A DNA stretch of 62,771 bases, counting the filler, from an uncultured Myxococcia bacterium (lineage in GTDB: Bacteria; CAZTWC01): NCBI GenBank assembly GCA_964617105.1. It is 6 parts of 6 records of this genome, joined end to end, with 100 filler letters (N's around TTAATTAATTAA, not from the genome) between each part and the next. Parts side by side here need not be neighbours in the genome. Positions count along the whole stretch, not along the records: positions 42,130 to 52,409 come from CAZTWC010000117.1; 5 more parts are not named here. One strand, given 5' to 3'. Position numbers and translations under genes: made by a program. Positions 21,267-62,771 of this stretch are shown here, one piece after another (the stretch's first letter is position 1; each line of letters begins with the position of its first letter). The notes beneath the pieces were generated by a model. The model searched no databases. It saw only the letters and a list, made by a program, of their open reading frames with translations, and had not been told where the DNA came from.

Positions 21267-21283
21267 ATATCGCTATTTTATCA

Positions 21284-23125: not shown

Positions 23126-23166
23126 TAGAGTCCCTCGAATTAATAACTACAAAAGCTCTATATACA

Positions 23167-26508: not shown

Positions 26509-26526
26509 CTTTTAATCTCCCCTGAA

Positions 26527-28101: not shown

Positions 28102-28274
28102 AATTTTTTCCTTAAAACATATTAATAAATAATAACAATTTAGAGTATTTTTAGGTTTATGTCAATTGTTGAGTTTTACCTAAATATTGCAAAAAATATC
28201 TTGCAATAACTGTAGAATTTTGTCATTATTCGATAGTTTAAAAATTTGTTCCTTAATAAAATTTAGAGAAGAAA

Positions 28275-29366: not shown

Positions 29367-29398
29367 TCCGGCACAAAATAACTACTACCAATCCTTCT

Positions 29399-41038: not shown

Positions 41039-41912
41039 CTTTTATCCTTTTCTTCAACTCTCTGATATATTCGGGTGTTGTACCGCAGCAACCGCCCACC
41101 ATTTTAACCCCAGCCTCTATTTGAGCCATCGCCTGGACCGCAAACTCTTCGCTGGTAACCGGATAAATGTATTGGCTGTTACTCCTTTTGGGCCTCCCCG
41201 CACAAGGTTTTAACGCCAGGGGTATTTTACAGTTCAATTGCCTGATACTATTAGTCAGGCCGGTCATCTCCAGCGGCGTCAGAGCACAGTTACTGCCAAT
41301 AATGTCTACTTTTTCCTTTTCCAATGTGGAGATACACTCCCCCAACTCTTGTCCCATCATGGTGTGAAAACAATCGCCATCTTTTTTAAAGGTCAAAGAT
41401 ACCATCAGTGGGCGTTGACTAACCTGACGGACAGCCTTGATGGCGCAAACGGCTTCCTCCAGGTCGCAAAAGGTTTCAATACAAAACAAATCCACCCCTC
41501 CCCGCTCCAAAATTCTGGCCTGCTGATAAAAAACCTCTTGCAACTCCTGTTTTGAACAGGTGCCCATGGGCTCTAAAAATTTTCCGGTAGGCCCGATGTT
41601 TCCCGCTACCAATCTTCCAGAGGGACAGGCTTCCCGGGCCAACTCAACCGCCATCAGGTTAATCTCAATAACTCTCTCTTCCAGTCCCCATTTCTTCATC
41701 CTGAACCAATTGGCTTCAAAAGTATTGGTATTGATAATTTCGGCGCCGGCATGCAAATACTCCAGGTGGACATTTTGCACTATTTGAGGATACTCCAGGT
41801 TCCACCAGGCGGTAGATTCCCGCAACTGGTTGAGCCCATATTCTATCAGCATACTGCCCATTGCCCCATCCAGCAGCACAGTATCTTTTTTTAACAACTG
41901 TTCCAAATCCAT
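41031..41912 (-). CDS. Stand-alone homocysteine S-methyltransferase domain (MetH N-terminal/BHMT-like)
   Basis: LLDGAMGS, AGAEIINTNTF, GNIGPTG, IET, GSNC, GGCCGTTPEYI (Zn-binding Cys). Confidence 0.9.
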   Translation of the reverse strand: MDLEQLLKKDTVLLDGAMGSMLIEYGLNQLRESTAWWNLEYPQIVQNVHLEYLHAGAEIINTNTFEANWFRMKKWGLEERVIEINLMAVELAREACPSGRLVAGNIGPTGKFLEPMGTCSKQELQEVFYQQARILERGGVDLFCIETFCDLEEAVCAIKAVRQVSQRPLMVSLTFKKDGDCFHTMMGQELGECISTLEKEKVDIIGSNCALTPLEMTGLTNSIRQLNCKIPLALKPCAGRPKRSNSQYIYPVTSEEFAVQAMAQIEAGVKMVGGCCGTTPEYIRELKKRIKDG

Positions 41913-42029
41913 AAATCTACCCTTTCTAAACTGTGAGTTTATTTAATTTGTAATCACTTTGCAAGGGTTATTCAAAACCGTTCTCTAAAATGTGTACAAA
42001 TCTGTACACGGCTTAGTTCCTGCTTCATC

Positions 42030-42129
42030 NNNNNNNNNNNNNNNNNNNNNNNNNNNNNNNNNNNNNNNNNNNNTTAATTAATTAANNNNNNNNNNNNNNN
42101 NNNNNNNNNNNNNNNNNNNNNNNNNNNNN
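42030..42129. other. Artificial contig linker
   Basis: N44-TTAATTAATTAA-N44. Confidence 0.99.
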
Positions 42130-42329
42130 GGCTCATTGTAACCCACAAAAACTTATCCACAAGCATAAATGCAGAAATCGCCTATAGCAATATCGATTAT
42201 TGCCATATTTTATCACCACAATGGGGGTTCACAGTTGACTTACCAACCGGCGGGAAATTTAAGGAATGATATCGGGGATTATCCTACAAATACGTGCTGA
42301 ATTAGTTTTTGGGAGTTACAAATCAATTA

Positions 42330-43451
42330 TTACTCCAATTTCTGCCATTTTCCGTTCACTGGCCGGTAAATATCATACCAGCCGGATTCATCTTGGGAGC
42401 CCTTAACTCCGGTCATTCCTTCATATTGCATGGATTTTGCTTTTTTTAACACATTGGCACGGTTAACCTCTTGTTTTTCTGCTCTGATGGCTTCAATTGC
42501 TCCTAATAGAAAATTTCCTGTATCAGTGCCGAAATCCTCCCACAGGTCATTGCCGCTCGTGCCCAAACCCATGGCATGAATAGGTGGTAAATCAGGCAAG
42601 GCATTGTTTAATCTTTTCAATAACTCCCCCGTAACGAGAGCGTCTCCGCCAAACCAGGAAATATCTTTCATGATATCATTTTTCAAACTCCTGGTAACCA
42701 GGTTGAAGAAGTCATTTTGAAAACCTAAGTATACAATTGTATCCAACTTTTCCTGTTCTCTTAGGCTAACAAGCGAATTTATAGGGAGGTCTGTATTGTT
42801 TACTGGAAAGGATGCCAATAACTTTGGTGGCGTCTGTTCAAGCTTAACATGGTTAGCGGCAAAGGTATTGGCGTACAGATGTGAAACGAGATCCATACTA
42901 TAAACATTGGTTTCAAAAACAACTGCGAAGTGTTTAACCTTTTGCTTGTTCATGGCAGTAAACAGGGCATCGCTTTGCAGCCGGTTGGAAGGAGCCATCA
43001 ACACCAGGTTTTTAATCCCCTCCAGCATTGTCGATGATGCGGTAACTGCAACTACCAATAGATCTTGCATTTCAGGATTGGCAGTAATGGCGAAAGCCGC
43101 GTCTGAAGTCTGACAAACAACGGCAATGACGTCAGGATCCTGCCAGGCTGTCTTAAATTTATCAACAAGGATATTTTGATTTGATTCCATGTCTTCCACA
43201 AGCAACTTTAGACTGGAGGTGTTTGTCGATAAAACCTTAGAAACCCCCTCCTTGATCTTGTTCCCTTTCTCGCTGTTACTGCCAGATAGGGGTAATAACA
43301 GAATAATTTTGGGAATGGAGCCTTGCGTAATATCACCTGACTGGCTGCCATCGGAATTATCAGCTGTAGGCGAGGAATCTGAACCGCAAGTATAAAGTGC
43401 TGCTGAACCTAGTATCAAAAGGGCTATTAGAACAATCTTATTTATCTTCAT
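42330..43451 (-). CDS. Type-1 periplasmic-binding-fold lipoprotein (LivJ-like)
   Basis: Start MKINKIV (43451), lipobox LYTC, ILLLPLSGSNSEKGNKIKEG, TASS, MAPSNRLQ, YEGMTG. Confidence 0.75.
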   Translation of the reverse strand: MKINKIVLIALLILGSAALYTCGSDSSPTADNSDGSQSGDITQGSIPKIILLLPLSGSNSEKGNKIKEGVSKVLSTNTSSLKLLVEDMESNQNILVDKFKTAWQDPDVIAVVCQTSDAAFAITANPEMQDLLVVAVTASSTMLEGIKNLVLMAPSNRLQSDALFTAMNKQKVKHFAVVFETNVYSMDLVSHLYANTFAANHVKLEQTPPKLLASFPVNNTDLPINSLVSLREQEKLDTIVYLGFQNDFFNLVTRSLKNDIMKDISWFGGDALVTGELLKRLNNALPDLPPIHAMGLGTSGNDLWEDFGTDTGNFLLGAIEAIRAEKQEVNRANVLKKAKSMQYEGMTGVKGSQDESGWYDIYRPVNGKWQKLE

Positions 43452-44667
43452 TTTTTTTCCACACTCCCTTTTCTGCTTTGTACGAATCGAATACCCCCTC
43501 TTTATGAGCCAGATCAAACCCCTTTTTTCCAGTGAGACCGGTAAAGGTAACCTCCCTGCCTGCTTTTAACAGATTGCTGCGGGAGATCTCTTGATTAGCC
43601 GACTCCAGTTTTAAAATAGTTTTCTTTAGAAAAATACCCGCATCATATCCCAGGGCTGCCCAAACGTCAGGTTCCACAGCATACTTTTTTTTGTAAAGGA
43701 CAACAAAATTTTGATAATCATTCCCTTCTGGATTGAGAATTCCAAAGGTAACCACTGTCAAATTGCCATTTAATTCATTTGCCTTTTGGAGCATTTGCCC
43801 ATCATGGAGGGCATCGGAAGCGAACCACTGGTAATCATAGCCTTTTAACAGGGGTAAAGAAGTCATGAAATCTTTGGGAAAACCAAGGAACAAAAGGGTC
43901 TGGATATTGCTTAGTTGTACCAGGCTATGATGGGGAACATGGCCGTTATATACAGGGAAACAACCGGCGAGTGCCGGGAAATGGAGGGGCTGGTTCATAT
44001 TGTCAGTAGTCCCCCGCCGTAATTCTCCCGCCATGGCATGGGAGTGAACCAGTGAAAACAGATCCTGGCTATAGATATTGTCCGCGAATAGGATGGCAAA
44101 ACGGTTAATTTTTCTTTTTTCCAGGAGTTGATATATCACTTTTGCCTGTAAAAAGTTGGATGGCGCAATCAGTAAAAGATTTTCTATTCCTAATAGCTGA
44201 GAGGAACTGGCTGTTGCAGAGACTACCAAAATGTCCCTTTTCCCCGGTTCCTCTACGATAAGTTTTGTCTGAGGAGAACTGGTAGTGAGAATTGAAATTA
44301 CTTCAGGATAACTGCGGGCAGAATCAAATCTGGCTTTGAGCGACTTATCGTCCAAACCCTGGATATCAATAGGTGCCAAGGATACTTTCCCCTTTGTTAG
44401 CATCTCCTGCAAAGCCAGTTGAAATCCATTCTTGACTTTATTGGGATGTTCCGAACCTTGTCCTGTCAAGGTTAGAAAAAGAACAATTTTTTTCTCGTTA
44501 CCTGCCTGGGCGAAAGAATCATCAAATAAAAATAAGAAGGAGAAGGAGAAAAATAGAAAAAAGACGCCATACTGAGGGATAAACCGAACAGGATCCAATA
44601 TTTTTAAATTTTGGTTATTGAAAGTCGATTTTAGTATTTTCTTTTGTGCAAAAATGGGCTTACGCAT
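43438..44667 (-). CDS. Type-1 periplasmic-binding-fold exported protein (paralog of neighbour)
   Basis: Signal ending SFA-QA, VLFLTLTGQGS, SATASS, IAPSNFLQ, AALGYDA, FTGLTG. Confidence 0.75.
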   Translation of the reverse strand: MRKPIFAQKKILKSTFNNQNLKILDPVRFIPQYGVFFLFFSFSFLFLFDDSFAQAGNEKKIVLFLTLTGQGSEHPNKVKNGFQLALQEMLTKGKVSLAPIDIQGLDDKSLKARFDSARSYPEVISILTTSSPQTKLIVEEPGKRDILVVSATASSSQLLGIENLLLIAPSNFLQAKVIYQLLEKRKINRFAILFADNIYSQDLFSLVHSHAMAGELRRGTTDNMNQPLHFPALAGCFPVYNGHVPHHSLVQLSNIQTLLFLGFPKDFMTSLPLLKGYDYQWFASDALHDGQMLQKANELNGNLTVVTFGILNPEGNDYQNFVVLYKKKYAVEPDVWAALGYDAGIFLKKTILKLESANQEISRSNLLKAGREVTFTGLTGKKGFDLAHKEGVFDSYKAEKGVWKKNEDK

Positions 44668-46463
44668 TATTTTTTTCCATGTGAGTCATTACTTGTAATC
44701 ATATTCAGCGCCTGTTCTGCGGCCTGACGTATATTTTCATCAGGGTCCTGTAAAAAGACCTGCAGTTTAGGAATCACAATTGGATCACCCAGGTTGCCAA
44801 GGGCCAATAGACAGGTCTCCTTTCGAGAATTGTCATTGCTCATATGCAGCAGATCCAAAATCTTCCCCAGCACATACTTTTGCCTCTCATCTTCTCCGCT
44901 ATTTTTCAGGAGTTTACCAATCCGGCCCAGGGACAGAAGAGCAGTATCACTTAGGTCGCCATAATCTACACTTGATTTTGGCTGCCGGGATTCCTTGTTC
45001 GAGATGAGATTCAGCATGGTGTCAATGATTTTATGCCCTGGTTTGGCAAGGTCGCCGGCTGCCACAATGGCCTGCAGCCTGGTTTTGTTCAAAAAATCTT
45101 TTTTGGAGATGATATCTGAAAGGGCCGACTGGGCCTGATCATGACCTGCGAGTTCCAGGGCATGGACAATGACGTTAACAGCCTGGTCCAAATCTTGATT
45201 GGCCCTGATAATCCGGGGTATCTTAAGGTAGGCGTCATCTGGAAAAGCGAGAAGATAATCGCGCAGTTCATGAACCAGGGCAGTCAACTCGGATGGGGAG
45301 AGATCACCGGCAACTGCCTTTTTCAGGTTGCTGCAAAGTTCAACCAAATCTACACCGGCAAATTTAACTTTTAAACTCTCCATCTTTTGCTGCTCCCAAA
45401 AAGATGGTGGTATTGCAGCGCTGTTCCCTGTGGAGTTTTCACCTGATGCTGCCTGGATGACCTCCGCCAAATCATTAAATTTTTTCCAAATTTGAAGTTT
45501 TTCGTCAGGTTTAAATGGGACCAACTTTAAATAGATCTCGCTTTTGGTCCGGTTAAGCATGATGGAATCATATTCCAAAATAACAGTTTCTTCCCCATTG
45601 ACTCCCTTGAGCCAGGAATGTCCAGCACCAGCCGGCTGGATTTCGAAATTTGACTTTAGAACCCTTATTCTAAATTTATTTCCTTCTTTTGGATAAGTTC
45701 CAGCTATGTTGGTAAAATCCAACTTAAGGTAATTTTTTTTCTTCTTGAATACCCTTTGGCATTTGGCATCCTTTTTTTGGTAGAGGGCCTGGTAATTGCC
45801 AGTGGAGTTCCTCTCGACAGTCGTCCATTCTAGAGGGTTGTCATGGTCTTGGCTACCAGGTTCCTTCTGAAGATTGGCTGAAAAAACCGCTGCCAGAGAA
45901 TAAATGGTCTCCCCCAGGGATTTTTGATCTTTGGGAGCCATGGTTGCAGGAAACGTGATATGAAAAGGCCGGCCATCCGGAGTAAAAGTTACCAGAAAAA
46001 AATTGCTATAGATTTTTTCCAATTGCCGTTTTCTTTCACCGGAAATAGTCACTGTACAGGATGAAAACTGGAAACCGACAAAAAACGCCCCCTTCTTTTG
46101 GCCAAAGACACGAAAATTAAGCGTTCCTTTGATCAGCATCTCTACATTTTGGCTCTTTTGAATAGTTCCTTTACCTGGTTCATTTTCCAGCTGACTGAAT
46201 AGTTCCAGATTGTATTTACTCTTATAATGGTACATTTGGCGGCTCTCTTGCAGCCAATTGAACATACAACTATTCCCGGCTATTTCTTTTTTCGGGTCAG
46301 CAGGCTGTGGACGAGTTTCAATCCCTCCCTGTTTCAGCGATATTGGCGAATTTTTATTGTGACAGGAAACAAACCATGACCAACAAATCCCAAAAAACAG
46401 AAAAACAACCAGAGCACCCAGGGCCAGTGGTTTCATTCTCTTTTTATTTTTTTCTTTAATCAT
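44667..46463 (-). CDS. Membrane-anchored protein resembling the vitellogenin/MTP/apoB N-terminal lipid-transport module (beta-barrel + helical/HEAT-like domain)
   Basis: N-terminal TM helix; YHY, FLVTFTPDGRP, WTTVERNSTGNYQALY, GEETV..LKL; helical part HALELAGHDQAQ, KPG, ALLSLG, LLALGNLG..IRQAAEQAL. Confidence 0.65.
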   Translation of the reverse strand: MIKEKNKKRMKPLALGALVVFLFFGICWSWFVSCHNKNSPISLKQGGIETRPQPADPKKEIAGNSCMFNWLQESRQMYHYKSKYNLELFSQLENEPGKGTIQKSQNVEMLIKGTLNFRVFGQKKGAFFVGFQFSSCTVTISGERKRQLEKIYSNFFLVTFTPDGRPFHITFPATMAPKDQKSLGETIYSLAAVFSANLQKEPGSQDHDNPLEWTTVERNSTGNYQALYQKKDAKCQRVFKKKKNYLKLDFTNIAGTYPKEGNKFRIRVLKSNFEIQPAGAGHSWLKGVNGEETVILEYDSIMLNRTKSEIYLKLVPFKPDEKLQIWKKFNDLAEVIQAASGENSTGNSAAIPPSFWEQQKMESLKVKFAGVDLVELCSNLKKAVAGDLSPSELTALVHELRDYLLAFPDDAYLKIPRIIRANQDLDQAVNVIVHALELAGHDQAQSALSDIISKKDFLNKTRLQAIVAAGDLAKPGHKIIDTMLNLISNKESRQPKSSVDYGDLSDTALLSLGRIGKLLKNSGEDERQKYVLGKILDLLHMSNDNSRKETCLLALGNLGDPIVIPKLQVFLQDPDENIRQAAEQALNMITSNDSHGKK

Positions 46464-46488
46464 GTGCGAATTAATTTTTGAGCAAGCC

Positions 46489-47994
46489 CTAAGGCAATAA
46501 AAAAGTCTTACTGGCCGTTTTATCGAACAATACCATTTTTTGCTTGAACGCGGTCCAGTTTACCCACCACCAGGTTAATTGATTGATTTTAAAACAAGGA
46601 ATCGGCACCTCCCTGCACATCCTGAAAAAACACTTCCTTTTCCAGCAAATACCAGGTGTGTACCATTTTATAAAAGGTCCCAGTCTACCTTTGGGCCCGA
46701 TTAAATCGTTGGTTATGGTAAATTGCAAATTTCCGCTGATTTCCTTATTATCCGCCGTGGGTTTCATGTAGCACATGCCTTCAAAAAAGAGTCTGTCTCC
46801 AATGAGGTCCAGGGTCCCTTTTACACCGGATGAAGCCGCCTTGATGGTAACACCGGCAGAGGCAAAAGTGCCAATTTTAAAATAGGGCCACACTTTAGCG
46901 TCCAGGTCTGTTCCGGCTATAATTTTCCATTCAATACCAATTTCACCGCTGGCACCGGCAGTAACTTCCACGGGTATAGGGCCCATGAAAATAGTTTTTG
47001 TTATCTTCTTTTCTTTGAGCCATTTGACTTTGTCCGACCAGGTGTAACCAAAACCAAAGCGCTTTTTACTCCAGAGTAGAGCCCCGAGAAAGTAGGTCAT
47101 GTATTTATAATGGGAGTTGGCGCTGCGGAAATAGAGGGTCTTTATATCGGCCGAAGCCCGGTAGAAGTCGAACTCGCGCTCAAAAAGAGTGACATTTACA
47201 CCTACATTGCCCTTTAAATCCGCCCCTTCTTTATGAAATCGCGCCAAACCGTCCATTGAAAAAAACGCACCAAAATATTGGTTGGCGAAATCTTTATCAT
47301 ATGCCTTGGAAAACTCCAGGGGTTTTTCGTCATCTGACCCACTCTCCAAAGGAGTCCTCCTGGGAGATGGAAGTTTTATTTTAATCTCTTTTAGCAGGAT
47401 TTTATCCCCGGGAAATTGAGTCTGCCATACTTTTAACGGATAGGTCTTTGTCTCCTCAACATCGCGGATTAATTCCCCTGCCAATTTTCCAGGGATATGG
47501 AGGGAGACAGGAATACTGGTAACAATTTCTGCTGGTATTTTTAGCACTGGGAGCCTATCCCGGTAATTATTTAAGGAACTGTCCCATACTTCAAGAGGGT
47601 GACACTCGCCCGTATCCGGGGTTTGGAGGCAAAACTGGAGAAGGATGTCCTGGTAATCTTTGGATATAGAATATACTTGAAGTATCATTTCAAGCCGCGA
47701 GTCGGGCATTAGAGGGATAATTCTTTCAGGTCCAGGTTGATAACTCAACAAATTTATGGGCAACAAATTTTCCTGAATCGAGCCCAGGCTAATAGCCAGT
47801 TTTTCACTCCCTTGTAAGCCGGGGGTTTCGCTATCACTTGCCAACGATTTGTTTCTATCCGCCTGTTCGCTGTCAAGTGGTCCGCTTTTATTGTTTCCCA
47901 CACCGCAACCTAACAGAAGAGCAAATACTGAAACAAGAATTACACCTCTCAACTTCATTATTATCAGGTGTTTGTATAACTTTTGAAACATCAT
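46489..47994 (-). CDS. Lipoprotein with C-terminal amphipathic beta-sheet domain (candidate lipid-binding sheets of a split large lipid-transfer protein)
   Basis: AGGAG RBS before ATG 47994, lipobox LLGC. C-half has alternating hydrophobic strands: VNVTLFEREFDF, YMTYFLG, TIFMGPIPVEVTAGASG, GVKGTLDLI. Confidence 0.55.
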   Translation of the reverse strand: MMFQKLYKHLIIMKLRGVILVSVFALLLGCGVGNNKSGPLDSEQADRNKSLASDSETPGLQGSEKLAISLGSIQENLLPINLLSYQPGPERIIPLMPDSRLEMILQVYSISKDYQDILLQFCLQTPDTGECHPLEVWDSSLNNYRDRLPVLKIPAEIVTSIPVSLHIPGKLAGELIRDVEETKTYPLKVWQTQFPGDKILLKEIKIKLPSPRRTPLESGSDDEKPLEFSKAYDKDFANQYFGAFFSMDGLARFHKEGADLKGNVGVNVTLFEREFDFYRASADIKTLYFRSANSHYKYMTYFLGALLWSKKRFGFGYTWSDKVKWLKEKKITKTIFMGPIPVEVTAGASGEIGIEWKIIAGTDLDAKVWPYFKIGTFASAGVTIKAASSGVKGTLDLIGDRLFFEGMCYMKPTADNKEISGNLQFTITNDLIGPKGRLGPFIKWYTPGICWKRKCFFRMCREVPIPCFKINQLTWWWVNWTAFKQKMVLFDKTASKTFLLP

Positions 47995-48135
47995 TAATAA
48001 GATCTCCTGTTCACTCATAATGAAACTTACATAACTTAATCTTCTATAAAAAACCGTTGGTCTAAAGATAGATCTATTGTAGTTTAATTCGCACTTTTAG
48101 CAAACAAAATAAGCATTTGAGATAAAATTTCATAA

Positions 48136-48732
48136 ATGATATCCTTAAAAAGGGTGTTGAAAAGTGATCTGGTCAATAAAAAAGGAAATAAAGTCTATGT
48201 CAAATTATCCCCTTCAACGGCTTCAATTTATCCATATTTATTTTATTTTATTTTTAGTGACTTCGGGAATCCGAAAAAATGTAAAAATAGTAAAAAATCC
48301 TGGGACCCAGAGACCTGGAGCTGTGTTAACACCTGTAATGAAACCCGTTGTAAAGACTATGAAACCTGCAATACCTTTTCAGGAAAATGCGAACCGCGGG
48401 TAAGTAACTCTGAACAGTTGATAAAACTGTTAGGTCAAGTCAAAGAGATTGGTCTAAAGATGCTGCAGAAGGATCCTGAGGCAGTAACAGATAGTGAAAT
48501 TAGAACCTTTCTTTCATATTTTTCTAAAAACAGTCCCTACTATAACCGGCTAGATCTTATTCGTGAGCAACTTGCTAATCGTTCTTCTTATGAATTAATG
48601 AAATTTTTATCTCAAATCAAATCAATCTCAATTAATTCTGGCAATGCTGTGATAACCATGGCGGGAAATGCCAAATGGTTTTTGATGAAGGAAGCTGATG
48701 GACTTTGGAAAATCACTTTTTTTCAGGATTAG
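48136..48732 (+). CDS. Hypothetical protein with EGF-like Cys cluster and helical/NTF2-like C-terminus; may be the 3' remnant of a larger gene
   Basis: C-x13-CVNTCNETRCKDYETCNTFSGKC, C-terminal FLMKEADGLWKI. No signal peptide or clear RBS. Confidence 0.45.
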   Translation: MISLKRVLKSDLVNKKGNKVYVKLSPSTASIYPYLFYFIFSDFGNPKKCKNSKKSWDPETWSCVNTCNETRCKDYETCNTFSGKCEPRVSNSEQLIKLLGQVKEIGLKMLQKDPEAVTDSEIRTFLSYFSKNSPYYNRLDLIREQLANRSSYELMKFLSQIKSISINSGNAVITMAGNAKWFLMKEADGLWKITFFQD

Positions 48733-48832
48733 CAAACAAATCTCTCTTGTTTTTCCTATACCCATTTGCTAAAATGCCTCTCAACTTCCCTATACCATAT
48801 ACCCTAAAACGAAACCAGTCTGGAGATTTCAT

Positions 48833-50725
48833 ATGAAATGTTTATCCTTTTTTTGGTTGTTCGCATTTTTGTTTTTATTGGCTGAACTCACCGCGTGTAC
48901 TCAAGATTCGTCTCCCGCAAATAGTAGTAATCAAAGTCAGACTACACCGGATGGAGGCGACGGTGCTGACGCGATTGTTGACCAGGACAACGACGGAGTG
49001 CCTGCGGTGAACGACTGTGATGACACCTCTGCGGCCCTGGGGGCCATTGCAAAGGATGCTGATTGTGATGGAATACTAAGCGCGGATGATTGTGATGACA
49101 CCTCTGCGGCCCTGGGGGCCGTTTCAAAGGATGCCGATTGTGATGGAATACTAAGCGCGGATGATTGTGATGACCTCGTTGCCAGTAAGAATCAACTTGA
49201 TGAAGACGCAGATGGGATTTCTAGTTGCAAGGGAGATTGCAATGACTTGAGTGCTCGATTCAACCCTGATGCTACAGACGGCCTTTTGGCAGATTACAAT
49301 TGTGATGGCGCTATTGGTTTTCAAAACCTTTCCTATGCTGATTATCAGGTTATTGGTGAAAATAGCTACGACAATGCCGGCACTTCTGTGTCCAGTGCGG
49401 GAGATGTGGACGGTGACGGACTTGACGATATTCTTGTAGGTGCCAAAGGTAACGATGACGGTGGTAATAACGCCGGCAAAGTATACTTAATTCTTGGCTC
49501 AAGCCTGGGTAGTAATCCTGCCATCGATCTTTCCACTGCCGACTACTGTTTCTTAGGCGAAGGCAGTTTTAATTGGGCTGGGGTTTCAACCTCTAGTGCA
49601 GGTGATGTGGATAACGATGGGTTGGACGACTTTTTGATTGGGGCTTATAGCAACGACGAAGGCGGAACATCTGCCGGCAAAGCGTATCTTTTTCTGGGGG
49701 CGAATCTCGGAGGTTCTGCAAGCATTCCTCTGGCTAAGGCCGATTACAGTTTTGTAGGTGAAAACGACTATGCCAAAGCGGGAATATCTGTTTCAAGTGC
49801 GGGCGATGTGGATGCAGATGGTCTTGACGATATTTTGGTAGGTGCAAATGGAAGCAATGATGGTGGGTTTGATTGTGGTGCAGCATACGTGATTCTTGGA
49901 TCAAGTTTGGGGGCCTCGGCGTCCATCAACCTCTCCTCGGCGGATTATAAATTTGTGGGCGAAAATCTTGGCGATTGGGCAGGAGTTTCGGTGGCCAGCG
50001 CAGGGGATGTTGATGGTGACAACCTCTCAGATATTTTAGTTGGCGCGCGGCATAATGATGACGCAGGTAAAAAGGCGGGTAAGGCTTATCTCATTCTGGG
50101 TTCAAGTCTGGCTAAACAGGCTGTTATTAATTTGTCTGAGGCTAACTACAGTTTTGTTGGTGAGGCAGAAGGGGATGCTGCCGGCGGAACGGTTTCAAGT
50201 GCAGGGGATGTAGATGGAGATGGACTTGACGATATCCTAATCGGTGCTGAAAACAGCGATAACTCAGGCTATAATGCGGGCACTGTTTATCTCATTTTGG
50301 GATCCAGCCTCGGTTCTACATCAACTATCGGACTCGATAGAGCTGACTATATTTTTAGTGGTGAAAATAGCTACGACGGAGCTGGTATTTCTGTGGCAAG
50401 TGCCGGAGACGTGGACGCAGATGGTCGTGGAGATTTTATTGTGGGGGCTAAATACAATGTTGATGGTGGTACCAGTGCCGGAAAGGCTTATCTTATCTTG
50501 GCCACAAGTCTGGGACAAGAAACAAAGATCTCCCTTTCTAAGGCAAACTATAGTTTCCTTGGGGAGAGCGGGAACGATTTTGCCGGGGCGAGTGTGGCAA
50601 GTGCCGGAGATGTCAACGGCGATGGTCGAGAGGATATTATTGTTGGCGCTTATGGTAACGACAAGAACAAGACTGCGCTGGATACAGGATGCGGCTATTT
50701 GATTCTTAGTGGGCTCTCAATTTAG
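48833..50725 (+). CDS. Lipoprotein with Asp/Cys-rich stalk and seven FG-GAP (integrin-alpha-like) repeats
   Basis: Lipobox LTAC, DCDD/DADCDG repeats, DGISSCKGDCND..NP motif, seven ~67-aa repeats AG.SV.SAGDVDGDG.DD..VGA. Confidence 0.88.
   Translation: MKCLSFFWLFAFLFLLAELTACTQDSSPANSSNQSQTTPDGGDGADAIVDQDNDGVPAVNDCDDTSAALGAIAKDADCDGILSADDCDDTSAALGAVSKDADCDGILSADDCDDLVASKNQLDEDADGISSCKGDCNDLSARFNPDATDGLLADYNCDGAIGFQNLSYADYQVIGENSYDNAGTSVSSAGDVDGDGLDDILVGAKGNDDGGNNAGKVYLILGSSLGSNPAIDLSTADYCFLGEGSFNWAGVSTSSAGDVDNDGLDDFLIGAYSNDEGGTSAGKAYLFLGANLGGSASIPLAKADYSFVGENDYAKAGISVSSAGDVDADGLDDILVGANGSNDGGFDCGAAYVILGSSLGASASINLSSADYKFVGENLGDWAGVSVASAGDVDGDNLSDILVGARHNDDAGKKAGKAYLILGSSLAKQAVINLSEANYSFVGEAEGDAAGGTVSSAGDVDGDGLDDILIGAENSDNSGYNAGTVYLILGSSLGSTSTIGLDRADYIFSGENSYDGAGISVASAGDVDADGRGDFIVGAKYNVDGGTSAGKAYLILATSLGQETKISLSKANYSFLGESGNDFAGASVASAGDVNGDGREDIIVGAYGNDKNKTALDTGCGYLILSGLSI
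49016..49174 (+). repeat. In-frame 75-bp tandem duplication (2 copies plus a partial)
   Basis: Copies at 49016 and 49091 differ at 3 positions and encode CDDTSAALGA(I/V)(A/S)KDADCDGILSADD. Confidence 0.95.
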
Positions 50726-50879
50726 CCAATTCATAACGAATTTCTGCAGAATTTCGAAAATCTGCCCTTAAATTTGCATACAATTCCGATCTACAAAAAT
50801 CAGAGACGGCATATAACTGTACTTGATATTTTATTGACCATCTGGCATGTAAATATAAACTTAATCTTCAGGAAGAAAT

Positions 50880-51318
50880 ATGACAACTCTACTAAAAACA
50901 AACGTGGTATTATTGGTGATGTTTTTCTTTCTAATGGGGTTTGTCGGTTGCGGCTCCTCATCAGATACTGACAAAAAAGATTCTACCTCAAATGGTGATT
51001 TTACCACGGGTGGAAATACCGAAAATAAAGATGGTGAACAAAAAGATGGAACTGAGACCGATGAAACCGGCAAAGATGGCGCTACCGATGGTTCTGGCAC
51101 CACTGGCAAAGGTGACAATAACAATAACTCTTCAACTGAAACAGTATGGCAAGAACCTGGCAGCAGCGATGGCATGACCTGGGACGAAGCCGTAAAATAT
51201 TGTGAAGACCTTGACACCCAAAAATTTACCGACTGGCGGCTGCCTACAATTGGTGAGTTGAGAACCTTTGTAAAGGGTTGTGATGATACCAAAGAGGGCG
51301 GAGGTTGTGGAGTAACAG
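50880..51318 (+). pseudogene. DUF1566 (Lcl-like) lipoprotein, C-terminally truncated
   Basis: Lipobox FVGC, G/D/T-rich linker, WQ..MTWDEAVKYCEDL..DWRLPTIGEL. Similarity stops after GCGVT and the frame runs on to 51476 in unrelated sequence. Confidence 0.75.
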
Positions 51319-51604
51319 GGCCCTCGAGATTATGGTCGCCCAAGTTGACGGATATAGTTTTGACCGTAACAACTTTTTTGTTTATTTTAATCCCAAAGAC
51401 AACGGCAGGGCGATTTTCTTACCCTGGGGAGTGGATAAAACGTTATCTTCAGAGGAAAAGTTTAGCCATTACTTAACTGCTCATCTGCCACGCCGTTTTT
51501 CTCGTATTCCAAGTCTCGCAAAACGTATGGAAGAAGAATTCAAACGGTTGTTTGATGAGGTATGGAATGATTCTGACCATACGATAATGCTATTCAATTC
51601 CTAA
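51317..51604 (+). pseudogene. C-terminal fragment of a CotH-family kinase
   Basis: ALEIMVAQVDGY..NNFFVYFNP..IFLPWGVDKT fits the CotH D-x-Y..NN..Y..PWD.D core. No N-terminal lobe. Confidence 0.7.
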
Positions 51605-51737
51605 AAGAGCAATTGAGCACTATTTAAACAGCATAAAGAAAAAGTATCAGTGCATATTGTCCCATCCCCCCCATGACATCCCATGTCCATTAATGCAGAA
51701 AAACCCACTGACCAACAGGTGACCAGCGGGGGGATAG

Positions 51738-52025
51738 TTAAATCAACGCTACCGCCACCGCCTCAGGATGCTCAGAGGCCACTTTTAAAAGGGCCATTGC
51801 CGGTCCGGCGGGTTTACGTCGTCCCTGCTCCCAGTTTTGCAGAGTAGATTTGCTTACCCCAATCATTAACGCAAACTCGGACTGGGATTTGTTTAACCGG
51901 CTTCTTATTGCTTTAATGTCTATTGGGCTGAACTCAAAAACCCGGCTGGCCTTTAGTTTGTCCTTTTTTATAGCCCCTGCCTGTTTGATACTCTGGGTAA
52001 GTTGTTCAAAATCTTTTGAGTTCAT
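51738..52025 (-). CDS. higA: HigA/NadS-type XRE-HTH antitoxin
   Basis: FEQLTQSIKQA, DIKAIRSRLNKSQSEFA..TLQNWEQGRRKP.GPA.ALL. Confidence 0.88.
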   Translation of the reverse strand: MNSKDFEQLTQSIKQAGAIKKDKLKASRVFEFSPIDIKAIRSRLNKSQSEFALMIGVSKSTLQNWEQGRRKPAGPAMALLKVASEHPEAVAVALI

Positions 52026-52282
52026 TTGAGATTCTCCTGCACTAATTTTGCCAATACCTTTACCTGTGCCGGTGATAAATCTGTTTGTTTGCTCTTTTTG
52101 TAAGCAAATATTATATAGATTTTTTCAACTGGCGGATCCCAATAGTAGATTACTCTCAATCCACCTTGCTTCCCTTGCCCTGGTAATTTCCACCGGACTT
52201 TCCGAAGGCCATTACTGCCAGGCATGATATCTCCAGCTTCCGGACGCACAATCAAAGCCTGTTGTAATTTGGGTATTTTTGC
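52022..52282 (-). pseudogene. higB: HigB2/RelE-type toxin lacking its N-terminus
   Basis: KLQQALIVRPEAGDIMPGSNGLRKVRW..GKQGGLRVIYY..YKK..DL. In-frame TAG at 52283-52285, and the usual F.ET..F N-terminal segment is absent. Confidence 0.75.
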
Positions 52283-52409
52283 CTATCCCCGCGAAATGTT
52301 AAGTTCTATTGCTTCCACTTTATTCCTTAAGCAGTTGTCTGTCCTCATTTCAGAGAGATCTCAACGCCAACTAACGCTTATTCGCCAATGCCTCCGCGAT
52401 ATTGAAGGC

Positions 52410-52509
52410 NNNNNNNNNNNNNNNNNNNNNNNNNNNNNNNNNNNNNNNNNNNNTTAATTAATTAANNNNNNNNNNNNNNNNNNNNNNNNNNNNNNNNNNN
52501 NNNNNNNNN
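52410..52509. other. Artificial contig linker
   Basis: N44-TTAATTAATTAA-N44. Confidence 0.99.
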
Positions 52510-52563
52510 ATGCGAGATATTTTTGTCGTAATCCCTTCTAATCAGGTCAATGGATTTGGATAC
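52510..52563 (-). CRISPR. Leader-proximal CRISPR repeat plus 15 nt of the first spacer; array cut by contig end
   Basis: Minus strand (GT)ATCCAAATCCATTGACCTGATTAGAAGGGATTACGAC (52525 to ~52563), a repeat-type GGGATT..GAC 3' end, 234 bp downstream of cas2. Only one copy is visible, so boundaries are approximate. Confidence 0.7.
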
Positions 52564-52796
52564 CACTCTTTGCAGGCAATTGAAAATGTTGGGAAATATA
52601 CCCTAAAAACAGGGATCTCGGGGGTATATCCCCCATACCCTGCACCCCATTTTTTGGAATCATGGTTTTCTCCTATAATATCATGCGCTTACAAGATCAG
52701 GGATCTTGAAATGCACTGTTTAATGATTTCAATAACTTAAGTCCGATTTGGATTATTTATATTAGATCCCTGTTTTTTCGGCCTAAGTCGTTGAAA
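52564..52796 (-). promoter_or_regulatory. CRISPR leader with IHF-like boxes and repeated CAGGGATCT motif
   Basis: Non-coding stretch between cas2 and the repeat. One-mismatch WATCAANNNNTTR boxes at 52679, 52727 and (inverted) 52784; CAGGGATCT at 52610, 52698 and (inverted) 52764. Confidence 0.6.
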
Positions 52797-53072
52797 TTAC
52801 ACAATTATGACCTCTTCGTCATCGCGAACACTGCCCAGGCCGGATATTTCTATGTTGCCTTTACAGGTTTTACAGAGAATATAATAGCGGATACTGTCAA
52901 CTTCTCTGTCCAGGTGAAATTCCAGATCCCGCTTTAATTTTAAAAATTGCCTGTCATTGAGATTGCACTCAAACACACTTTTTTGCACTCTCTGACCATA
53001 ATTTGTTAAAATTTTGGCCATTTTTGTCCTTTTGCTTGTTTCTACTATATCATAGGTTATAACATAATACAA
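52797..53072 (-). CDS. cas2: CRISPR-associated endonuclease Cas2
   Basis: YVITYDI, YGQRVQKSVFEC, DSIRYY. Confidence 0.97.
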   Translation of the reverse strand: MYYVITYDIVETSKRTKMAKILTNYGQRVQKSVFECNLNDRQFLKLKRDLEFHLDREVDSIRYYILCKTCKGNIEISGLGSVRDDEEVIIV

Positions 53073-53084
53073 TTTTTCTACTTC

Positions 53085-54137
53085 TCATCCTTTCATCACA
53101 TAGGATTGATATTCCTCTTCATCTTCCAGGCAACGGACCAAAAGCCTTGCCTGTTCCAGGAGGATATCACGATAGGTAAAACGTTTGCCGCGTGGTTCAT
53201 AAAATATCTTTTGGTTTAATTTCGACTCGAATTGCACTAAAAACTTTTTCATCCCCTGGTGAGTGAGGATAATCGGATAATCATCCTTTGCCGGAAACTC
53301 CTCGGCAAAATCAAATGCCGCCGGTTCGTTTTCGTCAGGACAGTAGAAATCAAGGTTTTTGATGATCTTCTTGTTGATCACCGCCAGCACCAGGGCATCG
53401 ACCAATACCGGTCGAAACTCCTCGATAATATCCAGCACCAGCGAGGGTCGGCCGTATTCGGGTTCGTGCAAACAACCAAGATATGGATCGAGTCCGACAA
53501 TATTCACCTGGGTTTGGACGGCATTGGCCAAAAGTGTATAGCCCAGGCTCAAGAGTACATTGACAGGGTCTCTGGGCGGTCGCCGATTTCTACCGTTGAA
53601 ACTAATCTCCTTAACCTTGATCAATTCGGCAAAACAACCAAAATATACCGCTGCCGCTTTGCCTTCGATACCCATAAGACTTTTGGTGGAAACACAGTCG
53701 GGGATTTTTTTGGACAGCACCCGTATTTGATGCAGGGCATTGATCACCTTTTCACTTTTTAGTTGGCGGTTGAGGCTTCGTAGTAGAGTGCGGCAATTAT
53801 TTAGTTTACCGGTAATATATTTGCCGGCTTGTTCCAACTTAAACTGTTTATCCTCCATTTTCTGGAACTGTGCCCGCCGAAGGTCAATATTTTTACCAAA
53901 TTGCGATGTCAGACGACCGCGGTATTTGCCCCGCATCGACATAAAAACGGTGTCTATACCCTCCTGGAGCAAAAAATTGATAGTTGCCGGCGAAAGATTA
54001 ATGTTTCCCATCAACACCATCTGGTTCACCTTGAAAGCATGAACCCAGTGGATAATCTTACCCATTTTTTCGACCAATAACCGCTTGCCGCTCTTTCGCA
54101 ACGAGGCCCCCTGATCGGTAACATAAAATATTGCCAT
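53085..54137 (-). CDS. cas1: CRISPR-associated endonuclease Cas1 (no RT fusion)
   Basis: LMGIEGKAAAVYF, RNRRPPRDPVNVLLSLGY, GLDPYLGCLH, SLVLDIIEEFRP. Confidence 0.97.
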   Translation of the reverse strand: MAIFYVTDQGASLRKSGKRLLVEKMGKIIHWVHAFKVNQMVLMGNINLSPATINFLLQEGIDTVFMSMRGKYRGRLTSQFGKNIDLRRAQFQKMEDKQFKLEQAGKYITGKLNNCRTLLRSLNRQLKSEKVINALHQIRVLSKKIPDCVSTKSLMGIEGKAAAVYFGCFAELIKVKEISFNGRNRRPPRDPVNVLLSLGYTLLANAVQTQVNIVGLDPYLGCLHEPEYGRPSLVLDIIEEFRPVLVDALVLAVINKKIIKNLDFYCPDENEPAAFDFAEEFPAKDDYPIILTHQGMKKFLVQFESKLNQKIFYEPRGKRFTYRDILLEQARLLVRCLEDEEEYQSYVMKG

Positions 54138-54138
54138 T

Positions 54139-55080
54139 TTATAAAGAGATATCCATCATCCCCAATCCAAAAGCAGTCTGTTTGCCGATATGTACCTTTT
54201 GGCAAAAATCGAACAGAGGTAGGTATTCATCCAGGTCACCCTCAAAGGTGATGTCGCCGACAATGCCGCCCATTAGCATATTTTTGTCTTGGCGGCTGGA
54301 GTATCTTTTCCAGTCAAACCATTTCAGGTTGTTTCTGACCACTTTGATGTTTGCCGCCCTGCTCACCAATCCGGCGTAGTCGAGTTGCGGTTCACCGTCA
54401 CCGTGATATTTCATCAGTGATGATACCCTTCTCAGCATAGCCCGCACCAATATATGAAAGGGCAAATCAGCCATGAACTGGTTTTTGTGTTTTAGTCTGA
54501 GTGGAGTTAGAAAATTTAGCTTAATTCTTTTGCCTAACTGGCCGCTTTGTGCCCGTTCAACCGGCATCAATTTCAGCGATACCGGCTCTGGAACTTGAAC
54601 ATTTTGATCAGTTGATGAAAAAACCGGCTTCTCTCCACTCGACACCAGTTCGATTTTAAAGCGGGCACGCCGTCGTCCAATATTTTTGCCAATCCCTGTT
54701 TTGCCCATTTCTATAAAAGCATAGATAAAATATGGCAGATACTGATTCACCTCACCAAACAGCAAAAGGGAAAAACAAAAAGTGGAACCGCCGTCAAAAT
54801 CGGTTTGACTGGTCAAAGGTGGTTCAATCACATAGGGATGAGGTACAGCGGCAATCTTTTTGTTACCGTTTGGGGCATTGTTGCGGTCATCGGTTTCAAA
54901 AGTAATAGAATAGATGCACTTTTCCCGCAAAATACAATCTGAGCAATCCTGCTTTTTCAAAGCGCAAGCCACTCTTTTAAGCGCATTACCAAAAGCCCCC
55001 CGAAAGGTGGAACCTTTATAATACGGCAAAACGGCATTGTCGGTAAAAACACACTTAAAATCGTATTTTTGAAATAGCAT
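54139..55080 (-). CDS. cas6: Cas6 crRNA-processing endoribonuclease (Cys-cluster type)
   Basis: YKGSTFRGAFG, C-x6-CxxC-x5-C, PHPYVIEPP, FLTPLRLK, terminal HIGKQTAFGLG loop. Confidence 0.9.
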   Translation of the reverse strand: MLFQKYDFKCVFTDNAVLPYYKGSTFRGAFGNALKRVACALKKQDCSDCILREKCIYSITFETDDRNNAPNGNKKIAAVPHPYVIEPPLTSQTDFDGGSTFCFSLLLFGEVNQYLPYFIYAFIEMGKTGIGKNIGRRRARFKIELVSSGEKPVFSSTDQNVQVPEPVSLKLMPVERAQSGQLGKRIKLNFLTPLRLKHKNQFMADLPFHILVRAMLRRVSSLMKYHGDGEPQLDYAGLVSRAANIKVVRNNLKWFDWKRYSSRQDKNMLMGGIVGDITFEGDLDEYLPLFDFCQKVHIGKQTAFGLGMMDISL

Positions 55081-56576
55081 TATTTATTTCTCAGTTTCTC
55101 AATATGGGAATCTATTTTCCCCAGTTCCATTTTGATTTTTGAGCCGATATTCGATTTCTTCTTTTTCTTTTTATTTAGTTTCTTTTTTTGTAGGTCTTTT
55201 TCCCATTGGCTAATCTTGTTCTTTAATTGTCTGGCCACAGTCTGTGATAGATCGTCAAGTTGAAACTTATTCTGTTGAGAATAATCATTAAAATCATTAA
55301 TTTTTTTGATTATTTGCATTTGTTCTTGCTCTATAAGGGAGAGATTATGCTCAACTGGCATTGGATTTTGCGTGTCTGTATCTTTTCCAACGGAAGTTTC
55401 CCACTTGATGCCTGACGGTTCAAGCCAATCAGCAATTAATTGATCACGGTCTTCTGTCCATTTCCCCTTTTTTCTTGCACCCAGAGCGAATTTATTCGCT
55501 TTTTCCTTTACTTTTCTGGCGACCTCAACATTGTTCTGTTGTTTTACAAAGTCTTCATTTTCCAACTTTTGTTTTAATTCGCCCCAACCATTGCATATAT
55601 CAATCTTGTCTTTTATCTGAAGTATTGGATCTTCCGAAATCCGCCATATGTTTATGTTATTTAATAAGCCATCATCCTCTTTATCCTGGATAGAAATTGA
55701 AAAACGGCCGTACCCATTGGCGGTTTTAGCTCCGATACCCTCATCTTCAAGGGCGTGTCCGATAGCAATTTTTACCATTTTCGTTAGCTTTTCGCCATTT
55801 TCTGTTTTTTCTACAAGTACCCTGAATGCAAATGAAATACCTGGATTGACAGTCAAAAATTTAATTGGATTTGGATCCTGGGTGTCGGTTGGCGGTTTAG
55901 GTCGATCCCCCGAGTAATAATCACCATAGTGAGGAGTCATGATATCAACGTAAAGTTCTGGTTTGACCGTTGGATAAGCATCGAGAAAAATCGCTTTGCC
56001 ACGGTAAGCACACATCTCTTTTTTGGCATCACACATCTTTTCACCGCCGAATATTTCACTAATAAATGTGGCTGGATCGGTCTCATCCAAATAGAGTCCG
56101 TTTTTGTCATTTTTCAATTTATCAAGAGGATAATTTTTCAGTATTTCCAGAGTATGAGCAAACCTGATAACACCTTTTAGACTGGAGGCTGGGATATAAG
56201 TTATACCCAGGTTATGGTCAAAGGTTATCCCGGTTTCACAGGGATGGGTTTGACCAATTCCAATCACCAACGGACTTTGCAATTTGGCTGTAAGAGTTAG
56301 TATATGGTAGCAACTGGACATATTTTCACAAAACTCTATCTGTTGGTGATGTTTTTTCAGCAGTAAATTGTTTAGTTCCGGGTTACCATTAACAACCTTT
56401 TCGTATTGTTTTTGGTAATAGTTTAGAGCATTTTCACTTTTGCCGGTTTTTTCTTCACAGTATTTAAACATATTTTGTTCACTTACAGGGACAAATTTGT
56501 TGAACCATAGAGAATAATTACCTTTCGAATAGTTTGACAGGCAATTTTGAGTGTCTTTACAGAATGGATAAATCAT
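55080..56576 (-). CDS. cmr6: Type III-B RAMP Cmr6 with ~205-aa C-terminal extension
   Basis: LVIGIG..ETG, YIPASSLKG, FLDAYP, DIMTPHY, PNPIKFLTV, GIGAKTANGYG. Start ATG 56576 after AAGGAGG. Confidence 0.93.
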   Translation of the reverse strand: MIYPFCKDTQNCLSNYSKGNYSLWFNKFVPVSEQNMFKYCEEKTGKSENALNYYQKQYEKVVNGNPELNNLLLKKHHQQIEFCENMSSCYHILTLTAKLQSPLVIGIGQTHPCETGITFDHNLGITYIPASSLKGVIRFAHTLEILKNYPLDKLKNDKNGLYLDETDPATFISEIFGGEKMCDAKKEMCAYRGKAIFLDAYPTVKPELYVDIMTPHYGDYYSGDRPKPPTDTQDPNPIKFLTVNPGISFAFRVLVEKTENGEKLTKMVKIAIGHALEDEGIGAKTANGYGRFSISIQDKEDDGLLNNINIWRISEDPILQIKDKIDICNGWGELKQKLENEDFVKQQNNVEVARKVKEKANKFALGARKKGKWTEDRDQLIADWLEPSGIKWETSVGKDTDTQNPMPVEHNLSLIEQEQMQIIKKINDFNDYSQQNKFQLDDLSQTVARQLKNKISQWEKDLQKKKLNKKKKKKSNIGSKIKMELGKIDSHIEKLRNK

Positions 56577-56586
56577 CAAAGCCTCC

Positions 56587-56964
56587 TTAGAAATTTGCAT
56601 TGGCAAAACGTTTTACCCATTGCAACAGTTTCAGGGTTTCATTTTGGGCATTCAGATATTTTACCTGGTTCATTTTGGAGATTTCCAGCATGAATTCCTT
56701 ACGATTAGTCTGGCTGACAAAGTTGTTGTTTACATCCTTGTTTTTATATGAAAGCCATTGAATCACCATATTCACCAAAGTTGATTGCTTGTTGTTTTCA
56801 TCTGCTTTTGACAACCAGAAAGCCAGGGCCTGGCCAAAGCCGTTTTGTAAAATCATTGAAGGCGCACCAGCGGCGAAGTTTTTAAATTTACCTTTTTTCT
56901 TATCTGGTATTTCCAATACCATGGACAAAGCATACTCAGATCTCTTTTGTTCCACTGTTCTCAT
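56587..56964 (-). CDS. cmr5: Type III-B small subunit Cmr5
   Basis: MRTVEQKRSEYA, APSMILQNGFGQALAF, LQWVKRFA. Confidence 0.93.
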   Translation of the reverse strand: MRTVEQKRSEYALSMVLEIPDKKKGKFKNFAAGAPSMILQNGFGQALAFWLSKADENNKQSTLVNMVIQWLSYKNKDVNNNFVSQTNRKEFMLEISKMNQVKYLNAQNETLKLLQWVKRFANANF

Positions 56965-57836: not shown

Positions 57837-57850
57837 GTTAGTCTCCTTGT

Positions 57851-61646: not shown

Positions 61647-61666
61647 AATGGTTTTCCTCCCAATTT

Positions 61667-62647: not shown

Positions 62648-62771
62648 CAATTGCCTCCTTTTTTATAAATAAAAAATATTATTCATTTATTATCTTTTTC
62701 GATTTGTCAGAAAACAAACACAGCTCCGCCATTTCGATTTTGTGTATTATCCCAACCGATCTAGTTACCAT

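Follow-up and report, generated by a model that had tools for sequence, protein, structure and literature searches.

A bacterial gene pair whose products may rebuild, from two chains, the architecture of large lipid transfer proteins

Large lipid transfer proteins (LLTPs), namely vitellogenin/lipovitellin, MTP and apoB, are treated as animal proteins, with their emergence tied to multicellularity, in the literature (PMC12214520, PMC13540394, PMC6717300). As laid out in the last of these, MTP comprises a half beta-barrel (residues 21-297), a two-layer helical clamp (298-603) and a C-sheet plus A-sheet (604-884); the C-sheet is six-stranded and the A-sheet strands are twice as long, half of the A-sheet packs on the barrel, the barrel pit takes A-sheet strands and loops, and the two helix layers form the clamp (PMC6717300). 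Here we describe two adjacent genes, termed A and B, from an uncultured Myxococcia bacterium (assembly GCA_964617105.1), which we read, with a probability of about 0.55, as encoding the two halves of a cell-envelope complex that rebuilds the LLTP architecture from two chains.

Of the described systems, MTP (6I7S, 8EOJ) is the closest. Gene B matches its first two domains, the C-terminal domain (C-domain) of gene A has MTP as its best fold match, and the predicted contacts between A and B follow the same plan; MTP, too, is a heterodimer, with PDI. However, MTP carries all three domains in one chain and is a eukaryotic protein, soluble in the lumen of the endoplasmic reticulum, whereas in the A-B pair a second chain, a lipoprotein, would supply the sheets, the chain with the barrel carries a membrane helix and the pair belongs to a bacterial envelope. 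In the structural alignments identity is 10-17%, and lipid transfer, proven for MTP, is proposed for A-B by analogy. Lipovitellin and vitellogenin (1LSH; bee 9ENR, 9ENS) and apoB100 (9BD1, 9BD8, 9E9R) include the best sequence-profile match of the gene B family, 1lsh_A, but are secreted animal proteins of 1000-4500 residues that hold tens to thousands of lipids in a funnel or belt and have additional vWD, phosvitin and beta-belt domains, whereas the A-B pair is small and split. Bacterial HEAT-repeat proteins of the PBS-lyase type resemble the last helices of gene B, which match HEAT_2, HEAT and HEAT_PBS as well as designed alphaRep proteins, but they have neither an N-terminal LLTP barrel nor a conserved beta-domain partner gene. 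LolA/LolB, Mla, Lpt and the AsmA/TamB-like proteins are bacterial envelope lipid carriers or bridges of unrelated folds. They share with the role proposed for A-B the shielding of hydrophobic molecules between two Gram-negative membranes by membrane-tethered periplasmic proteins, and none of them was among the listed fold matches of gene A or gene B. A full-text literature search, with supplements and subscription-only journals outside its range, found no described bacterial LLTP.

Both genes lie in the part of the window (the whole stretch of 62,771 nucleotides analysed here) that comes from CAZTWC010000117.1, window positions 42,130-52,409. In the ORF (open reading frame) listing of the window four co-oriented minus-strand ORFs are gene A, gene B and two Peripla_BP_6 genes. 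The listing agrees with the original prediction, made from the DNA by itself, in giving two adjacent, co-oriented genes 25 bp apart. The start named there for gene A (47994) is indeed a Met, codon 9 of the longest ORF, but the likelier start is the Met at codon 21 (47958), from which a 489-residue product begins with MKLRGVILVSVFALLLGC, to all appearances a classical lipoprotein signal peptide with an LLGC lipobox; we take the lipobox consensus to be L-[AS]-[GA]-C. The features of the two genes, all on the minus strand, are as follows.

46489..48018, minus strand: gene A, longest ORF, 509 residues; a putative lipoprotein with a disordered linker, an immunoglobulin-like (Ig-like) sandwich and a C-terminal all-beta domain (ORF listing).
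47905..47958, minus strand: putative gene A signal peptide with lipobox, MKLRGVILVSVFALLLG ahead of the Cys (translation).
47728..47904, minus strand: gene A tether after the lipid-anchored Cys, of low confidence and probably disordered (pLDDT <50 at model residues 1-66 and 68-77).
47374..47697, minus strand: gene A Ig-like beta-sandwich, residues 88-195 of the AlphaFold2 model.
46498..47319, minus strand: gene A C-terminal beta domain, model residues 214-487 (model strands; MTP best in Foldseek and VIA).
46464..46488, minus strand: spacer of 25 bp between genes A and B (ORF listing and sequence).
44667..46463, minus strand: gene B, 598 residues, an LLTP N-terminal module behind an N-terminal membrane anchor (Pfam, HMMER, profile, model and Foldseek).
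46359..46430, minus strand: predicted gene B N-terminal transmembrane helix, residues 12-35, preceded by a Lys/Arg-rich start (model).
45519..46241, minus strand: gene B beta-barrel with internal helices, residues 75-315, equivalent of the LLTP betaN barrel (model).
44694..45470, minus strand: gene B two-layer helical (HEAT-like) domain, residues 332-590, equivalent of the LLTP alpha domain (model and Pfam).

Gene B is almost certainly homologous to the barrel-plus-helix module of the LLTPs. It matches the Pfam family Vitellogenin_N with an E-value of 5.6e-10 and 38.9 bits (curated cut-off 24), the match covering residues 358-592 against profile positions 288-526 of 590, which is the helical part only. 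Within the same region residues 535-593 match HEAT_2, and HEAT and HEAT_PBS are also matched; against NCBIfam neither gene B nor gene A gave anything above the cut-offs. Taken alone, the Vitellogenin_N match could be a HEAT artefact, since it is confined to the helices, since the match in the relative P0002 is limited to residues 550-638, overlapping HEAT_2, and since a PDB search with the single gene B sequence returned designed HEAT proteins only. The explanation that follows from this, that gene B is an ordinary HEAT-repeat protein and the match a by-product of HEAT-like helices, would also draw on a profile made from the barrel only (A8, 19 sequences), which reached just E 0.16 against lipovitellin, a value not significant by itself. 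Even there, though, lipovitellin was the better of only two PDB hits, the weak alignment falling on the E..G...Y stretch to which the original prediction had drawn attention, and when a profile of 142 gene B relatives (A1) was searched against PDB sequences it gave a single continuous alignment with lipovitellin of lamprey (1lsh_A, E 6.6e-12), profile positions 132-528 to chain residues 91-511, beginning inside the barrel. The same profile matched the helical domain of human MTP at 3.5e-8 (8eoj_B) and 6.1e-8 (6i7s_G), and designed alphaRep proteins as well.

The AlphaFold2 model of gene B, built on the A1 alignment, is confident (mean pLDDT 88.4, pTM 0.83) and consists of a helix at 12-35, a linker of low confidence that runs to about residue 66 (pLDDT <50 at 36-53), a long-stranded barrel with internal helices and 14 helices between residues 332 and 590. 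The layout read earlier from the DNA, a membrane anchor followed by a strand-rich region and then helical hairpins with which the protein ends, is thus borne out by the model (12-35, 75-315, 332-590), and the motifs cited for it are all present: FNWLQESRQMYHY, FLVTFTPDG, TVERNSTGNYQALY, KKKK, ALELAG, KPG, ALLSLG and LALGNLG...IRQAAEQAL. A Foldseek search of the PDB with this model places MTP, lipovitellin, bee vitellogenin and apoB100 at all of ranks 1-11 (E 3e-14 to 4.7e-7; MTP 3.0e-14, lipovitellin 1.8e-12), with every designed repeat protein below them, as the prediction that the N-domain is a vitellogenin/MTP barrel would have it. The structural alignments span barrel and helices together, covering 454 residues of 1lsh_A and 305 of the apoB100 barrel construct 9bd8_A. 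Set beside these matches, the HEAT-repeat explanation is extremely improbable; nor are tandem HEAT hairpins the whole fold of gene B, in which HEAT_2 is matched at 535-593 only and residues 75-315 form a beta-barrel. Of the LLTP-type features, gene B has the N-terminal barrel and, straight after it, the two-layer superhelical alpha domain; it ends there, without C- and A-sheets on the same chain. Its Cys66 and Cys235 are partly conserved in close relatives; the barrel disulfides of LLTPs, as listed in PMC6717300, are Cys174-Cys194 in MTP, Cys156-Cys182 in lipovitellin and Cys186-Cys212 in apoB.

Gene A belongs to no Pfam or NCBIfam family and has few detectable relatives, which share an Ig-like domain (CARDB in three of them) and the last ~280 residues; repeating the word-based search with the gene A alignment added none. 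The strand motifs pointed out before in the 509-residue protein (VTLFEREFDF, YMTYFLG, TIFMGPIPVEV) are all there. In its AlphaFold2 model (mb5453a8407f4, from alignment A5 of 17 sequences) a disordered tether reaches to residue 77 and is followed by an Ig-like sandwich (88-195) and an all-beta domain (214-487), the latter with six strands of 8-15 residues and then about eight of mostly 15-26 residues. This order of six short and then long strands, as modelled, fits the C- and A-sheets of MTP. Three residues are invariant in the gene A family, P329, G338 and G341, all in the C-terminal beta domain. A Foldseek search of 350,542 chains gave only three matches to the gene A model at E<=1e-3, the top two being MTP (6i7s_H and 6i7s_G, 2.1e-4 and 2.4e-4, probability 1.00, 288-297 columns), and MTP is also the best VIA match of the C-domain. 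A porin, the alternative fold named for this domain in the original prediction, did not come out of the fold comparisons, in which MTP was the best match, at modest scores and with no support at sequence level. Whole gene A searched against the ESM Atlas had as its best match, at 0.89, an unnamed 'Lipoprotein' cluster, and the best among named Atlas clusters for the C-domain, 0.80, is at chance level.

In close relatives of gene A the C-terminus bears additional Ig-like and dockerin-like segments. Three further lipoproteins of 611-639 residues (P0004, P0005, P0006) have an N-terminal CARDB domain and a gene A-type C-terminal domain (25-27% identity), and resemble an Atlas cluster of 298 'Lipoprotein' members, mostly from Pseudomonadota. 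The A domain may also occur without gene B.

Gene B residues 60-598 and gene A residues 205-489, each with its own alignment, were co-folded in three runs alongside three controls. The original prediction had called for such a co-fold, and a complex was predicted that held up against the controls. The ipSAE values were 0.79, 0.81 and 0.79 for the pair and 0.01, 0.00 and 0.00 for the controls, at least 75% of contacts agreed between runs and partner pLDDT was at least 71; the mark applied is passed by 58 of 80 solved complexes and by 2 of 110 mismatched pairs. All seven alternate helices of gene B touch gene A in the prediction and none of the remaining seven does, so that the contact surface for gene A would be the inner layer of the gene B solenoid. 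Gene A strand 293-301 is placed against the C-terminal helices of gene B (residues 467, 507, 510 and 553-557), and the conserved hairpin 321-339, which includes P329 and G338 with G341 just beyond, against barrel residues 84 and 181-185. These predicted contacts match the MTP plan, in which the helices clamp the sheets and the barrel pit receives the A-sheet. We consider it fairly probable that gene A supplies the LLTP sheets in trans, and the models point to a tight A-B complex with LLTP geometry.

The gene B family is real and beyond chance, given its number of relatives and a Vitellogenin_N score over the curated cut-off. An exhaustive HMMER search with residues 40-545 against 1.84 billion representatives (clusters at 50% identity) returned 298 relatives at E<=1e-3, of which 143 reach E<=1e-10 and 34 reach E<=1e-30; a word-based homologue search had found one true relative of gene B and three of gene A. 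The best 150 of the 298 are 294-725 residues long, and nearly all are matched from the strand-rich region through the helices. Their names in the source databases, 'HEAT repeat domain-containing protein' (Spirochaetota metagenome-assembled genome (MAG), MBP7738511.1), 'Lipoprotein amino terminal region' (IMG) and 'hypothetical protein', are much as forecast, 'HEAT repeat' and 'hypothetical' having been expected from automatic annotation. The closest genomic relatives (~30% identity) are in Desulfobacterales MAGs. At E<=1e-25 gene B was found in 14 of 301 genomes of an even sample of that order, and in 1 of 401 of a phylum-wide sample, the query genome itself, with three candidates scored per genome; both counts are to be read as 'not found' rather than 'absent', since few candidates were scored in the phylum sample and MAGs are incomplete. 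Family members share ~25% identity with each other, and contigs of both low and high G+C carry them. Against a recent transfer from an animal, a reading that we reject, stand the 298 clusters at 50% identity, this low mutual identity and the range of host G+C.

A branch of distant gene B paralogues occurs in four loci of the order sample (L038-L041). In three of the four (L039-L041) the N-termini look like cleavable signal peptides rather than anchors, and in three (L038, L039 and L041) the paralogue directly adjoins a long ORF with ACR_tran and OEP domains, a neighbour that hints at hydrophobic cargo. These ORFs, from three Desulfobacterales genomes (L038:8050-12474, minus strand; L039:588-4991, plus strand; L041:8714-12841, minus strand), are free of stops over ~1470 residues; a complete RND pump domain of the AcrB type takes up about residues 1-1020, and two OEP repeats, of the TolC-like outer-membrane factor, come after it. 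An inner-membrane pump fused to an outer-membrane channel in one ORF is odd in itself.

The genomic partnership of A and B is conserved. A profile of the A domain found it in 11 of the 301 Desulfobacterales genomes, all of them within the 14 that have gene B (Fisher p 9.5e-18, a figure that overstates the co-occurrence because the sampled genomes are related). The order sample yielded 18 loci with a gene B relative, of which three (L002, L005, L044) lack upstream sequence, leaving 15 informative ones. An A-domain gene stands directly beside gene B in eight of the 15, upstream and co-oriented in six (L003, L004, L035, L036, L037, L043), divergent in L001 and downstream in L034. A metagenome scan with a distant, G+C-rich gene B subfamily gave five loci, four of them with upstream sequence, and in all four an A-domain gene is immediately upstream and co-oriented (in L061, A at 2-1330 and B at 1334-3208). 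The A-to-B order is thus kept between subfamilies only ~25% identical. In total 19 loci are informative and A adjoins B in 12 of them, a share that becomes 12 of 14 when paralogues and a broken copy are left aside. Of the expectation that homologues elsewhere would be adjacent or fused, adjacency holds in this majority of loci, whereas no fused A-B form was seen among the best 150 of the 298 relatives; in L064 the A and B ORFs overlap in different frames and are likewise not fused. The pairing is ancient and modular. The earlier reading of the locus as a split LLTP-like protein is supported, with the gene B N-domain matching the LLTP barrel, a gene A C-domain whose best fold match is MTP and homologues that are adjacent in other genomes. 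In L032, an intact close relative of gene B has upstream of it a 694-residue protein with only a weak TPR hit and a CAAX-type protease of Peptidase_M48 (L032:2695-3945 and L032:3893-5974, both plus strand), and the A-domain gene of that genome is on another short contig.

Several results weigh against a two-chain LLTP-like complex. For gene B, the Foldseek fits are loose (TM-score 0.33-0.48, root mean square deviation (rmsd) 9-11.6 Å), designed HEAT proteins reach a similar Z on its helical half alone, and the gene in the window stops at profile position 527 of 625, lacking the last ~100 residues of HEAT repeats seen in relatives. For gene A, the model is of middling confidence (mean pLDDT 71.5, pTM 0.57), the TM-scores to MTP are low (0.30-0.31, rmsd 10.5 Å), the family profile found no hit among PDB sequences at E<=10, and 17 relatives searched against Pfam at E<=10 matched no LLTP family, only CARDB (three members) and noise; the link of gene A to the LLTPs is one of predicted structure. 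The co-fold may pass as the network recalls solved LLTP chains, and would therefore speak for likeness to LLTPs rather than for binding of A and B. In seven of the 15 informative order-sample loci no A gene adjoins: L032 and L033 hold intact close relatives, the L042 copy is broken by a stop codon, and the other four are the distant paralogues. The stretch itself was recovered in marine or seawater metagenome DNA runs of two studies, with no RNA run among the eight runs that contain it (their DNA type was guessed).

Put together, some of these points would suit an explanation in which gene B works alone or with other partners, the likeness of gene A to MTP is that of a chance all-beta fold, the two genes are adjacent owing to another role in common and the co-fold result is artefactual. 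The lack of any sequence link from gene A to an LLTP, the seven loci with no adjoining A gene and the quite different neighbours of the paralogous branch all favour it. We regard it as quite improbable, since it would require that a gene adjoining an MTP-like one should, by a striking coincidence, have MTP as its best match out of 350,542 chains. It would also have to accommodate strict co-occurrence (11 of 11 genomes), a gene order kept across such divergent subfamilies, and a co-fold that scored 0.79, against 0.01 for the best control, with contacts that fall precisely on the inner layer of helices and on the residues best conserved in the two families.

A rather unlikely but more substantial alternative accepts the A-B complex and takes it for a protein-protein docking device, in which the membrane-anchored gene B clamp would grip the conserved beta module of lipoproteins or of very large secreted or surface proteins and would anchor, chaperone or help to assemble them at the envelope. 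In four genomes the A module, including its Ig-like part, lies inside ORFs of 2468-3961 residues, and the three of these that were scanned are rich in PA14, PD40, Laminin_G_3 or Big_2 domains. Such giant multidomain proteins with the partner module were not foreseen in the original prediction. The neighbours of the pair in its closest relatives encode cohesin/dockerin and CarboxypepD_reg repeat proteins, which fit surface-protein assembly better than lipid carriage and, with the giant ORFs, also count against a lipid carrier. The dockerin-like ends of close gene A relatives agree with docking, as does the conservation within the A family, which is highest in the predicted interface hairpin rather than in an obvious pocket. 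MTP itself, as stated in PMC6717300, also chaperones apoB by means of its barrel and helical domains. Against docking, the fold that the pair would rebuild is known only as lipid-binding, gene A in the window and in the four metagenome loci is small, stand-alone and without adhesin domains, and the RND pumps next to the paralogues suggest a cargo that is small and hydrophobic.

Under the two-chain LLTP-like reading that we favour, the N-terminal helix of gene B would be a signal anchor, oriented N-in by the positive-inside rule, followed by a flexible linker and then the barrel and two-layer solenoid; with such an anchor the folded part would face the periplasm. A hydrophobic N-terminal stretch is found in all ten aligned gene B relatives in which the N-terminus is present. 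Gene A would be a lipoprotein on a long flexible tether, beginning in all likelihood at the Met at 47958, with its C-domain clamped between the inner layer of gene B helices and the pit of the gene B barrel, where the C- and A-sheets of MTP and lipovitellin lie. Each chain would thus be anchored once, B through a transmembrane helix and A through a lipid, with a flexible tether in both cases, and topology rules would put both folded parts in the periplasm or at the cell surface. By analogy with the LLTPs the pair might enclose a hydrophobic pocket, bind there lipids or other hydrophobic molecules of the envelope, and hold these or pass them between membranes, a function to which we give somewhat less than an even chance. 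In other bacteria the same beta module is either a separate upstream gene or part of giant surface proteins, and one paralogous branch of the barrel family lies beside RND efflux pump genes.

A bare Vitellogenin_N hit in bacteria is not new, because the Pfam name is already attached to some members in databases. The novelty lies in recognising that these proteins form a diverse bacterial family, in the division of its architecture between two genes, with a beta-domain partner that is conserved, and in its place at the envelope. With a sheet partner encoded separately, a bacterial barrel-plus-clamp family would place the origin of the fold outside animals, would offer a natural 'split' LLTP for the study of how clamp and sheets assemble, and would be a further candidate among the few bacterial systems that carry hydrophobic molecules through the periplasm. 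The system is testable, with small proteins, a predicted partner and named interface residues. A further step, that the pair is the prokaryotic forerunner of all eukaryotic LLTPs or a sister lineage that has survived, a two-chain lipid-handling complex of the bacterial periplasm having been acquired and its genes fused, we think unlikely; if it were true, LLTPs would be far older than animal multicellularity, and bacteria would hold an unrecognised class of envelope lipid carriers, one branch of it working with RND pumps.

Downstream of gene B lie two further genes of the same orientation.

43438..44667 and 42330..43517, minus strand: two Peripla_BP_6 binding-protein genes (ORF listing and Pfam).

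The first of them overlaps the end of gene B by one base, and both are probably in the same operon as gene B. A tblastn search of 18 related loci found no counterpart of either, so they are taken to be local operon neighbours outside the system. Terminator-like sites were not found in the 25-bp spacer and are at chance level across 41800-48900 (9 against 7.1 expected); promoter-like sites are likewise at chance level (19 against 15.2 expected), and that scan was given no weight. Divergent from gene A, on the plus strand, are a Cys-rich protein of 198 residues (48136-48732) and a lipoprotein-like protein of 630 residues (48833-50725) with seven FG-GAP repeats behind Asp/Cys-rich repeats (DADCDGILSADDCDD); these are further extracellular proteins beside the A-B pair.

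The rest of the window is ordinary bacterial chromosome, with genes for haem synthesis, Nuo/Mrp subunits and chemotaxis and a type III-B CRISPR-Cas locus. The latter occupies 53085-62650 (minus strand) and encodes Cas1, Cas6, RAMP proteins, Cmr3 and Cas10/Cmr2; no CRISPR repeat array was found in 51400-53200, and the array may lie beyond the window end. A possible lipid-related cluster at 20564-29953 includes an NAD_binding_4 (fatty acyl reductase-like) gene, an AMP-binding acyl activating enzyme, an Rce1-like CAAX protease, a 1113-residue protein with a weak Lipase_bact_N match, a 524-residue protein of no family and a stand-alone HEAT-repeat protein of 363 residues (28275-29366), to which the HEAT part of the gene B profile aligns as well. 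An ORF of 95 residues at 51738-52025 (minus strand) has, judged by its sequence, the look of a helix-turn-helix regulator of the antitoxin type.

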